This document shows positions 1,590 to 6,107 of a stretch of DNA of 52,397 bases, piece after piece. Each line of letters starts with the position of its first letter. Positions within the stretch are counted from its first letter, which is position 1. The stretch comes from a virus (lineage: Duplodnaviria; Caudoviricetes): positions 1 to 52,397 of IMG/VR virus record IMGVR_UViG_3300030406_002796. One strand, written 5' to 3'. The notes beneath the pieces are model-generated. The model searched no databases and had not been told where the DNA came from. It saw nothing but the letters and a program-made list of their open reading frames with translations. A program made the position numbers and the translations under genes.

Positions 1590-1594
1590 ATTAT

Positions 1595-1625
1595 TATTAT
1601 CTTACTTTATTTGTATTTAATTTGT
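1595..1625 (-). promoter_or_regulatory. putative phage early promoter, copy 1
   Basis: ACAAATTAAATAC-N10-AGATAATA, 6 nt upstream of ATG 1589. Confidence 0.7.
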
Positions 1626-1632
1626 ACAAAGA

Positions 1633-1791
1633 ACGAGGCCGGGCAGGTGTGGTTCGTATAAACATCTGTCAAGTGGTTTCGTTGACATCACTAATCGGCC
1701 CAATTCACCACTATCGTTTATATCTGCTTTATCCTGCCGTTTGCGTGGAGGACTCGAATACCTCATACACGCGTTACCACGCTCACCTCGT
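1633..1791 (-). ncRNA. putative multi-stem structured ncRNA
   Basis: Nested complementary stems ACGAGG/CCTCGT, GCGTG/CACGC, GAGG/CCTC, GGCAGG/CCTGCC, TATAAAC/GTTTATA, TGTCAA/TTGACA in a GC-rich intergenic stretch. Confidence 0.55.
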
Positions 1792-1799
1792 ATTTATAG

Positions 1800-1881
1800 T
1801 AGCACGGGTAGGAATCGAACCTACCAACTCGTCAGTTAACAACACTAGCAATTACTTGCATCATCATGCCCAGTCCGTGCT
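1800..1881 (-). ncRNA. tRNA-like RNA with non-canonical D and anticodon arms
   Basis: Acceptor AGCACGG/CCGTGCT, T-arm GTAGG-TTCGATT-CCTAC, variable-arm hairpin TAACT-GACG-AGTTG; weak anticodon stem. Confidence 0.6.
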
Positions 1882-1884
1882 ATT

Positions 1885-1956
1885 GCAGCAAGAAGGTTAG
1901 ATGGTCGTGTACTTAATCCGATTGTCGGCGTATTGACCTACACTCCCTTCGCCTGC
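1885..1956 (-). ncRNA. putative pseudoknotted ncRNA
   Basis: Outer GCAG/CTGC and GAAGG/CCTTC, inner GTGTA/TACAC, crossing GGTC/GACC, hairpin CCGA-CAA-TCGG. Confidence 0.45.
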
Positions 1957-3290: not shown

Positions 3291-3476
3291 TTAATTATCT
3301 TTTATTATTCTATCGCTTTCATGGCACATCCACTGACAGCAACTTAAACTATGACCTTTGCCTGTTATAAAATCTTCAAAAGCTTCATTATCAGGTAACC
3401 ACGCGTTACCTATTTTGTATTGAAATACTTCACCGACTTCAAAATCTAGCACCGTTATATAGTTAACTCTTTTCAT
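3291..3476 (-). CDS. hypothetical protein
   Basis: ORF track; ITVLDF..G.V.QY...GH.L....WM pattern. Confidence 0.6.
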   Translation of the reverse strand: MKRVNYITVLDFEVGEVFQYKIGNAWLPDNEAFEDFITGKGHSLSCCQWMCHESDRIIKDN

Positions 3477-3974: not shown

Positions 3975-4048
3975 TGATCGAGGTAGGAATCGAACCTACA
4001 CTCTACAGCTTAGAAGGCTGTTGCTTTATCCAGTTAAGCTACTCGACC
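3975..4048 (-). tRNA. tRNA-Arg(TCT)
   Basis: Full cloverleaf: acceptor GGTCGAG/CTCGATC, D-arm GCTT..AAGC with TGG, anticodon arm ACAGC-CTTCTAA-GCTGT, T-arm GTAGG-TTCGATT-CCTAC; no encoded CCA (CTA follows). AGA is the dominant Arg codon in the phage genes. Confidence 0.95.
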
Positions 4049-5392: not shown

Positions 5393-5414
5393 AACTATTT
5401 AATTTATTTATTAT

Positions 5415-5445
5415 TATTATCTTTACTATTTTGTATTTAGTTTGC
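5415..5445 (-). promoter_or_regulatory. putative phage early promoter, copy 4
   Basis: GCAAACTAAATAC-N10-AGATAATA. Confidence 0.7.
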
Positions 5446-5615: not shown

Positions 5616-5639
5616 AACTATTTATTTTATTTACATTAT

Positions 5640-5670
5640 TATTATCTTTGCTCTTTCGTATTTAGTTTGT
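5640..5670 (-). promoter_or_regulatory. putative phage early promoter, copy 5
   Basis: ACAAACTAAATAC-N10-AGATAATA. Confidence 0.7.
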
Positions 5671-5760
5671 AAAAGTATATTATTTGTTTATACATTTATT
5701 TTCGTTAGCGCATACTCCGCCACTTCTCTCATTGTATAAATGAAAGTTATAATTATAGTA

Positions 5761-6043: not shown

Positions 6044-6076
6044 ATTATTATATTTTATATTATTAAACTTCTATAT

Positions 6077-6107
6077 TATTATCTTTATTGTTTTGTATTT
6101 TGTTTGT
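6077..6107 (-). promoter_or_regulatory. putative phage early promoter, copy 6
   Basis: ACAAACAAAATAC-N10-AGATAATA. Confidence 0.7.

Follow-up and report, generated by a model that had tools for sequence, protein, structure and literature searches.

A segment of a viral genome (positions 1633–1791, minus strand) encodes a structured RNA that belongs to a large covarying family, of which at least 115 distinct copies were collected from marine viral and metagenome contigs. The family fold is a three-way junction in which a closing helix (P1), an optional hairpin (P2), and a variable hairpin (P3) are arranged around ~45 invariant nucleotides. An original prediction, made from the letters alone, had proposed an unclassified multi-junction RNA at these positions. 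The structured RNA was confirmed and assigned to the minus strand, and its multi-junction character held, although the two domains envisaged are better described as one three-way junction with an invariant core.

The window (i.e., the whole stretch of DNA that was analyzed) is a 52,397-base IMG/VR virus record, estimated to be 93% complete, that encodes a DNA ligase, GroEL, large terminase, portal, and virion proteins. Its terminase is matched by 87 GenBank phage records, the closest being one uncultured phage record at 67% identity; all others fall below 60% and are, by name, phages of Flavobacterium (68), Cellulophaga (15), Tenacibaculum (2), and Maribacter (1), with the Flavobacterium rows at 47% identity among the matches listed. 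The carriers are uncultured marine podophages with a terminase like those of Flavobacterium and Cellulophaga phages. In the AT-rich left arm of the window (GC about 0.28–0.35), the minus strand holds every gene from position 1 to ~6390, and a 370-nt gap with a GC content of 0.43–0.465 separates the ORF at 1961–2134 from the ORF at 1326–1589, in keeping with the earlier description of the segment as GC-rich. Following the minus strand, the gap contains a hairpin (1956–1885), a tRNA-like element (1881–1800), 8 nt, and the RNA element (1791–1633); the adjoining tRNA-like element had been anticipated, with a spacing of 9 nt instead of the 8 nt found. Every complementary segment named in the original prediction is present when the window is read on the minus strand, including the closure by ACGAGG/CCTCGT, which is P1. 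The parts of the window copy and its neighbors are as follows.

1633–1791, minus strand: whole element, a P1-closed three-way-junction RNA, its limits set by the outer P1 pairs
1785–1791, minus strand: P1 5′ strand ACGAGGU, partner of 1633–1639, covarying in the family
1633–1639, minus strand: P1 3′ strand GCCUCGU, partner of 1785–1791, then UCUUUGU
1776–1782, minus strand: invariant G-N-GUGGU, which supplies the 5′ side of either the proposed pseudoknot or the competing nested helix
1776–1780 with 1649–1653, minus strand: complementary segments GUGGU/ACCAC
1743–1772, minus strand: optional stem P2, GCGUG/CACGC, whose tip carries a T-loop-like hairpin
1748–1764, minus strand: T-loop-like hairpin GAGG-UAUUCGAGU-CCUC at the tip of P2
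1723–1741, minus strand: invariant AAC-GGCAGG-AUAAAGCAGA, in which GGCAGG (1733–1738) is the 5′ strand of helix S2
1723–1732, minus strand: A-rich joiner, the 3′ part of the preceding segment
1657–1722, minus strand: P3, UAUAAAC/GUUUAUA (1716–1722 with 1657–1663), covarying
1657–1722, minus strand: within P3, the distal stem AGUGGU/ACCACU, bearing the recurrent insert 1676–1708
1641–1655, minus strand: invariant GA-ACCAC-A-CCUGCC-C, with ACCAC (1649–1653) as the 3′ strand of the proposed pseudoknot and CCUGCC (1642–1647) as the 3′ strand of S2
1733–1738 with 1642–1647, minus strand: complementary segments GGCAGG/CCUGCC, helix S2
1800–1881, minus strand: tRNA-like element with a 7-bp acceptor AGCACGG/CCGUGCU and a T arm GGUAGG-UUCGAUU-CCUACC
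1885–1956, minus strand: conserved hairpin GCAGGCGAAGG ... CCUUCUUGCUGC on the upstream side, starting 5 nt past the stop codon of the ORF at 1961–2134
1590–1625, minus strand: AT-rich leader or promoter-like repeat of ~35 nt, between the RNA and the ORF at 1326–1589

A model built from homologues (R1) produced a single match in the window, at 1631–1757 on the minus strand (39.6 bits, E 1.3e-8). The 1633–1791 region is contained in DNA sequencing runs, and metatranscriptome contigs from four runs covered only the ORF at 1946–2122 and, through one 31-nt match, part of the insert (1678–1708).

Homologues were collected by several routes. Searches with the flanking small proteins identified 13 related viral loci; the element was recognized by eye, with differing inserts, in L013, L015, L009, and L017, and is missing from the closest relatives L010, L011, and L012. 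When viral contigs were scanned for exact motifs, 19 real and distinct copies, that of the window among them, remained after filtering of chance matches, which make up most matches of such short patterns: 7 of 68 stretches were real in the first scans, and 15 stretches passed the filter in the next, one of which (L194) was dropped as GC-rich coding sequence. A gapped pattern applied to marine metagenome contigs listed at least 120 rows. The 5′ motif was found in 110 of the 123 matches listed, and the other 13 comprised five chance matches, six copies cut by contig ends, a copy with a 5′ deletion (L264), and a variant (L262). In L264, the 3′ half is intact and the P1 5′ strand, GGGUGGU, and the 5′ half of P2 are missing; this copy is decayed or recombined. 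The resulting 115-member set underlies the P1, P2, and core-motif counts given below; a later scan with a 17-mer, in which the 3′ half was left free, added more. The smallest natural members are L093 (66 nt) and L186 (85 nt).

Outside these contigs, the gapped pattern found no real copy in the genomes of 185,579 bacterial species, where its three matches were GC-rich, without 5′ motif or P1, and were rejected as chance, and blastn with the intergenic region and a minimal member found no match in 50,697 GenBank phage records. Across 240 kb of related loci, model R1 revealed no diverged copies beyond those found by pattern, except a second copy in L233, and the family was searched only in sequence fetched by exact patterns. 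Rfam 15 (4,227 models) returned one threshold match in the window, a tRNA-Arg at 3975–4048, and nothing overlapping 1633–1791 at E ≤ 10, which agrees with the earlier failure to recognize a class; for the minimal members L093, L186, L255, and L222, nothing fell on the element at E ≤ 5. Full-text literature searches found no description of the RNA family. PMC10690425 reports 8,495 unnamed candidate structured RNAs from IMG/VR intergenic regions, the same data source and kind of object as here, and the family may be among them; the core motifs and six contig numbers had no match in the searchable supplementary files of that study (i.e., those other than the alignment archives). Because there is no Rfam match, no literature description, and a possible listing in PMC10690425, we rate the family as an uncatalogued, orphan structured phage RNA linked to tRNA genes, with a real chance of being categorically new.

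From 5′ to 3′, the consensus runs from the P1 5′ strand through three variable nucleotides to GG-GUGGU, followed either by UUAAC or by A, the P2 hairpin, and AAAC. It continues with GGCAGG-AUAAAGCA-RA, the P3 hairpin, GA-ACCAC-R-CCUGCC-C, and the P1 3′ strand. The ~45 practically invariant nucleotides are those of GG-GUGGU, AAC-GGCAGG-AUAAAGCA, and GA-ACCAC-R-CCUGCC-C. GUGGU itself is invariant, with a G two positions earlier in 115/115 members and a G directly before it in 112/115; the window copy has a C at this usually-G middle position of G-N-GUGGU. AAC stands ahead of GGCAGG in about 110/115 members. The invariance of the AAC-GGCAGG segment and others was partly forced by the search patterns, and a scan with no constraint on the 3′ strand kept ACCAC and CCUGCC in 35/35 real matches. 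The linker between ACCAC and CCUGCC is A in 128, G in 6, and T in 1 of 135 parsed copies, the single T being a chance match (L221).

Pairing was assessed in an alignment (A1) of 28 homologues, all of them P2-less. Both sides changed in 7/8 P1 pairs and in 5/5 P3 pairs, the share of paired cells was 91.2% compared to 37–49% with slid partners, and the observed pairing measures were reached by 0 of 500 shuffles. Over the 115 members, P1 cells comprised 785 Watson-Crick, 25 G-U, 5 A-C, and 33 other combinations, and the prevalence of G-U over A-C therefore identifies the minus strand of the window as the RNA strand. Contiguous P1 measured 7–8 pairs in 76/99 members. The P2 insert is present in 77/115 members and absent in 38/115, and its closing stem varies by member (GUAG/CUAC, GUGUU/AACAC, GCGUG/CACGC, and others). 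Homologues of the predicted RNA thus exist in marine viromes, their P1, P2, and P3 covary, and these three helices are established. Insert lengths in P2 and P3 vary freely and not in threes, which excludes coding. Together, the invariant core and the covarying P1, P2, and P3 form a conserved aptamer-like plan of the kind by which riboswitches are recognized.

Folded as a single sequence, the window element did not surpass shuffled controls, a result that on its own would have counted against the original prediction by that prediction's own test: the minus strand reached −47.9 kcal/mol (z −1.16, with 29/200 shuffles as good) and the plus strand a z of −1.55 (13/200 shuffles as good). Single-sequence folding significance is uninformative here, and it is the comparative evidence that lifts the element above chance. 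Two pairings of the original prediction were not borne out by the family. UGUCAA/UUGACA competes with AGUGGU/ACCACU, which is the minimum-energy choice, and is absent from the closest homologues, as L013 and L302 retain UUGACAGAUG without UGUCAA; AGUGGU/ACCACU flanks the recurrent insert, and this flanking stem covaries in L009, L101, and L134. The GGCCG/CGGCC alternative is not conserved, most members having CGACCUCG at that place.

Within the core, every member has full complementarity, without any variation, in GGCAGG/CCUGCC and in the crossing GUGGU(U)/(A)ACCAC. In A1, 6/6 S2 pairs and 4/6 pseudoknot pairs are invariant, the other two departing only by unpaired cells, and the lone possible compensatory event is a change of the sixth pair from U-A to A-U in L350/L355. 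A GUGGU/ACCAC pseudoknot beside GGCAGG/CCUGCC is plausible; since both strands are invariant, covariation provides no test between the pseudoknot fold and a nested helix.

The periphery of the fold is modular. The GAGG/CCTC T-loop-like hairpin of the original prediction is present in the window but is not a family feature: a hairpin akin to it occurs at the tip of P3 in L280 and L287, and the 33-nt insert at 1676–1708 (GUGAAUUGG...CGAAAC) appears again at the tip of P2 or P3 in L009, L101, and L134, and also inside another hairpin on an unrelated metatranscriptome contig. From this recurrence at differing tips, both the T-loop-like hairpin and the 33-nt insert are swappable peripheral modules. 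The 33-nt module, GUGAAUUGG(G/C)YCGAYUAGUGAU..CAACGAAAC, was always found with a covarying flanking stem, in different RNAs, and looks like a mobile tertiary-contact or protein-binding module. Further recurrent modules are CCGAAACUCGG repeats and AAAGAUAAACGG..GGAAUCCAUUG.

The genomic setting is consistent in direction and position. The element points the same way as the flanking ORFs in 10/10 loci checked, and the stop codon of an upstream same-strand ORF falls 0–22 nt before P1 in 86/98 loci, with the upstream ORFs belonging to at least five unrelated families. The commonest gene directly upstream is a very basic ORF of ~45 aa (KKRKLNSKNPKYWDKS...KVYGVWYE/K), which precedes the element in roughly 45 of ~85 loci (e.g., L207, L209, L224, L232) and is absent from the window. 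A same-strand element bearing a T arm (tRNA or tRNA-like) lies within about 440 nt in 60/118 loci, downstream in all but two of them (L285 and L302); a tRNA-like element is also found upstream of the RNA in the window and L013. ARAGORN called 17 tRNAs in 13/118 loci, all on the same strand and all downstream, and in 7/118 loci a tRNA-Asp or tRNA-Gly begins 11–14 nt after CCUGCC, which is 3–5 nt after P1. At other loci, hairpin cassettes with an ACGARG/CYUCGU foot and a U tail can intervene before the tRNA. UUU follows P1 directly in 50/99 members, and at least five U occur within 8 nt in 23/99. A simple terminator consensus scan did not call the element and called a plain terminator at 1306–1280.

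The element occurs in one copy in 5/5 carrier genomes tested and in the window, and tandem copies were found in L357. It is absent from 5/5 close relatives, four of which are 90–100% complete, and is therefore accessory and dispensable. Where it is present, the core is invariant though flanking proteins are only 64–96% identical.

The tRNA-like element at 1800–1881 has a T arm of canonical appearance and no recognizable D or anticodon arm, encodes no CCA, and was not called by ARAGORN or Rfam; an exact 26-nt T-arm/acceptor pattern found nothing in viral contigs. Similar elements occur in L010, L012, L013, L015, and L009 and in about 58 metagenome loci. Their acceptor and T stems covary (AGCACGG/CCGUGCU, AGUAUGA/UCAUACU, AGCUUG/CAAGCU), and a conserved UGACGRR stands directly before the T arm. 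They are commoner than the RNA element and persist in relatives from which the latter is absent. For the RNA element itself, a tmRNA with a GCA resume codon was considered and rejected, since the frames that follow GCA share neither length nor sequence and this part shows the covariation of a stem; ARAGORN found no tRNA or tmRNA at 1590–1960, and the Rfam tmRNA model scored 8.7 bits, only on the T arm of the neighboring tRNA-like element. The upstream hairpin is a second uncatalogued structured element, with ends GCRGGCGAAGR...YCUUCUUGCYGC and a variable tip; by eye, compensatory changes were seen among L009, L010, L012, L013, and L015 (GCGG/CCGC vs GCAG/CUGC; GAAGG/CCUUC vs GAAGA/UCUUC). The AT-rich repeat on the other side recurs at 5410–5444, 5635–5674, and 6074–6107 (minus strand), directly upstream of early ORFs, precedes the homologous gene in all relatives, and is likely a phage promoter or translation leader.

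Our preferred reading, held tentatively, is that the family forms a stable RNA domain, with ends determined by processing of the tRNA type and with the invariant core serving as a binding surface. The location after stop codons, ahead of tRNA-type elements and in one direction, suggests release or bounding by tRNA-processing enzymes. The RNA would be transcribed within an early polycistronic transcript, immediately following a stop codon, with tRNA-like or tRNA genes downstream; in the window, the copy sits behind a tRNA-like element instead of a stop codon. Host tRNA processing would set the ends: RNase P would cut where the following tRNA or tRNA-like element begins, and a tRNA-type element that precedes the RNA would be trimmed on its 3′ side. 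The product would be a compact, P1-clamped, probably pseudoknotted domain that resists exonucleases, either terminating the upstream message on its 3′ side or existing as a separate small RNA, and the invariant core would be the working surface that binds a conserved host or phage factor. One copy per carrier genome (5/5) and in the window marks a dedicated gene rather than a repeated signal, and core invariance that outlasts the divergence of flanking proteins argues for a specific function; a gene that is dispensable, present once, and invariant in its core is no generic terminator. Counting against this reading, a tRNA abuts P1 in only 7/118 loci, close relatives do without the RNA, and the single-sequence fold does not exceed shuffled controls.

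A broader proposal, which we consider unlikely, is that the core represents a new class of catalytic or sensing RNA that punctuates early transcripts at tRNA-type arrays, where the RNA would be cut or gated independently of, or together with, host RNase P.

Its sensing form, an improbable one, is a switch or attenuator in which GGCAGG/CCUGCC with GUGGU/ACCAC alternates with a rod of GGGUGGU/ACC(U)GCCC stacked on P1, so that a ligand or factor would pick the fold and set transcription or processing into the downstream tRNA-like and tRNA genes. RNAalifold, which considers nested structures only, builds this alternative from invariant bases by pairing GGGUGGU with ACC(U)GCCC atop P1, and in constrained folds the two nested states lie 1.3–2.7 kcal/mol apart in L210, L093, and L186 and are about equal in L013; the pseudoknot duplex would contribute about −7.8 kcal/mol to the GGCAGG/CCUGCC state. 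On these computed energies, core pairing may be dynamic. The window copy, however, disfavors the alternative helix, at −36.9 vs −45.8 kcal/mol, so that GGCAGG/CCUGCC is favored by 9 kcal/mol. The restriction of the linker after ACCAC to A or G is what a partner of U in GGGUGGU requires, and the UUU that follows P1 in half of the members, together with 16 loci in which a second hairpin with the ACGARG/CYUCGU foot and U tail follows, and whose 5′ strand could pair with the P1 3′ strand, would suit an attenuator; some riboswitches also occur in tandem, as the element does in L357. Against this, five or more U follow P1 within 8 nt in fewer than a quarter of the members, and termination cannot be efficient at the seven loci where a tRNA starts 3–5 nt after P1. 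The element also lies behind ORFs of unrelated families and not in the 5′ leader of a consistent gene, the next ORF is separated from it by the repeated leader- or promoter-like sequence, possible expression platforms occur in a subset only, and the neighboring genes give no clue to a ligand (the small ORFs among them have no PHROGs or Pfam family).

The catalytic form, that of a new small self-cleaving ribozyme class cutting the early transcript beside tRNA-type genes, appears decidedly improbable. Small ribozymes typically have a compact invariant core, a pseudoknot, optional peripheral stems, and a sporadic presence in phages, a description that fits the family with its possible pseudoknot. 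Placement is tight by tRNA or tRNA-like elements, and in the window, L013, L285, and L302 the RNA lies just 3′ of a tRNA-like element. A precedent is provided by theta ribozymes, HDV-like RNAs that, according to PMC10879173, lie on the 3′ side of phage tRNAs in phages thought to infect Bacteroidota and Bacillota, with a proposed role in processing of tRNA flanks. Both are small RNAs directly beside tRNA genes, pseudoknotted in theta ribozymes and proposed to be so here; in contrast to that 3′ placement, our family is mostly found 5′ of tRNAs. By inspection of L093 and the consensus, the HDV-like order (P1, P2, P3 hairpin, P1′, P4, P2′) differs from that of the family, which runs GUGGU, [P2], GGCAGG, [P3], ACCAC, CCUGCC inside P1, with the hairpin between the crossing strands variable or absent. 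The HDV-like catalytic cytosine is the first position of J4/2 (PMC10879173), and its equivalent here is a single A or G. No known ribozyme model matched at E ≤ 10 on the window or E ≤ 5 on minimal members, those of HDV type included; HDV-like, hammerhead, and twister assignments were rejected for lack of a model match and of a fitting strand order.

Highly improbable is an ornate intrinsic terminator or 3′ stabilizer hairpin, in which P1 and a U tail would act and the core would have no specific function. Elements starting directly after stop codons, the frequent UUU after P1, and the ACGARG...CYUCGUUUUAUAA foot shared by unrelated cassettes in the same arrays are in line with such a role. It would nonetheless make ~45 invariant nucleotides superfluous, and it sits poorly with one copy per genome and not per operon end, with tRNA genes 3–5 nt away in seven loci, and with a terminator scan that misses the element while calling 1306–1280. 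It is extremely improbable that what is conserved is a small protein or a DNA feature (an origin, a recombination site, or a site bound by protein): the core is invariant without covariation and, in the window, the element overlaps one ORF of 49 aa on the minus strand and another of 92 aa on the plus strand, but P1, P2, and P3 covary, G-U exceeds A-C 25 to 5 on one strand, and inserts of any length break both reading frames.

The RNA family has several further partial parallels. The tRNA cluster of phage T4 reportedly encodes two small, stable RNAs, species 1 and 2, whose function is unknown. These RNAs share transcripts with the phage tRNAs and are presumably released by tRNA-processing enzymes; by analogy, the likeness would be that of non-tRNA structured RNAs accompanying phage tRNAs, in a different phage group and host. 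In the eukaryotic MALAT1-mascRNA system, a neighboring triple helix that includes an A-rich tract shields a 3′ end made by RNase P. The resemblance lies in a tRNA or tRNA-like element directly 3′ of a compact structure, so that RNase P cleavage where the tRNA starts would make that structure the new 3′ terminus. GOLLD and ROOL RNAs are phage-borne, located near tRNAs, and not known to have a function. They are described in 10.1101/2024.12.08.627333 as large, ornate, modular RNAs, and their inserts are reminiscent of the peripheral modules that recur in our family, although they span several hundred nucleotides vs a ~60-nt core in our family and their Rfam models do not match it.

Families this invariant and covarying, with more than 100 variants, have often proved to be ribozymes, riboswitches, or RNAs with specific protein partners. 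The present one has no Rfam entry and no representative in cultured phages, it is abundant in marine metagenomes, and its 66-nt natural member (L093) makes it directly testable in vitro. If it were merely a stable 3′ domain, it would show phages shaping their messages by tRNA-type processing. The arrays of tRNA-like elements, tRNAs, and swappable modules in which it lies suggest that phages related to those of marine Flavobacteriia have an RNA biology that is rich and unexplored.

A candidate partner protein is a 61-aa ORF at 3291–3476 (minus strand) with an ITVLDFE...GH...C.WM motif and no Pfam or PHROGs family. It occurs in 5/5 other carriers and 1/4 non-carriers, always 0.6–2.2 kb upstream on the same strand. 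No other gene was found to track the RNA element, and this one does so only loosely, as a weak lead that is confounded by relatedness. The arrays themselves hold further structured elements. In L223, L227, L234, L239, L255, L268, L271, and others, unrelated hairpin cassettes with the foot ACGARG...CYUCGUUUUAUAA lie 3′ of the element and are followed by a tRNA-like element and then by real tRNAs; the entire cassette and tRNA array may constitute a single long, ornate precursor. L010 and L013 have, between their upstream hairpin and tRNA-like element, a second motif of the same interleaved topology as the RNA element, GGUAGA..GUAGA-AUAAAACGGUAUAA-CUACCUCUAC, whose joiner also starts with AUAAA.
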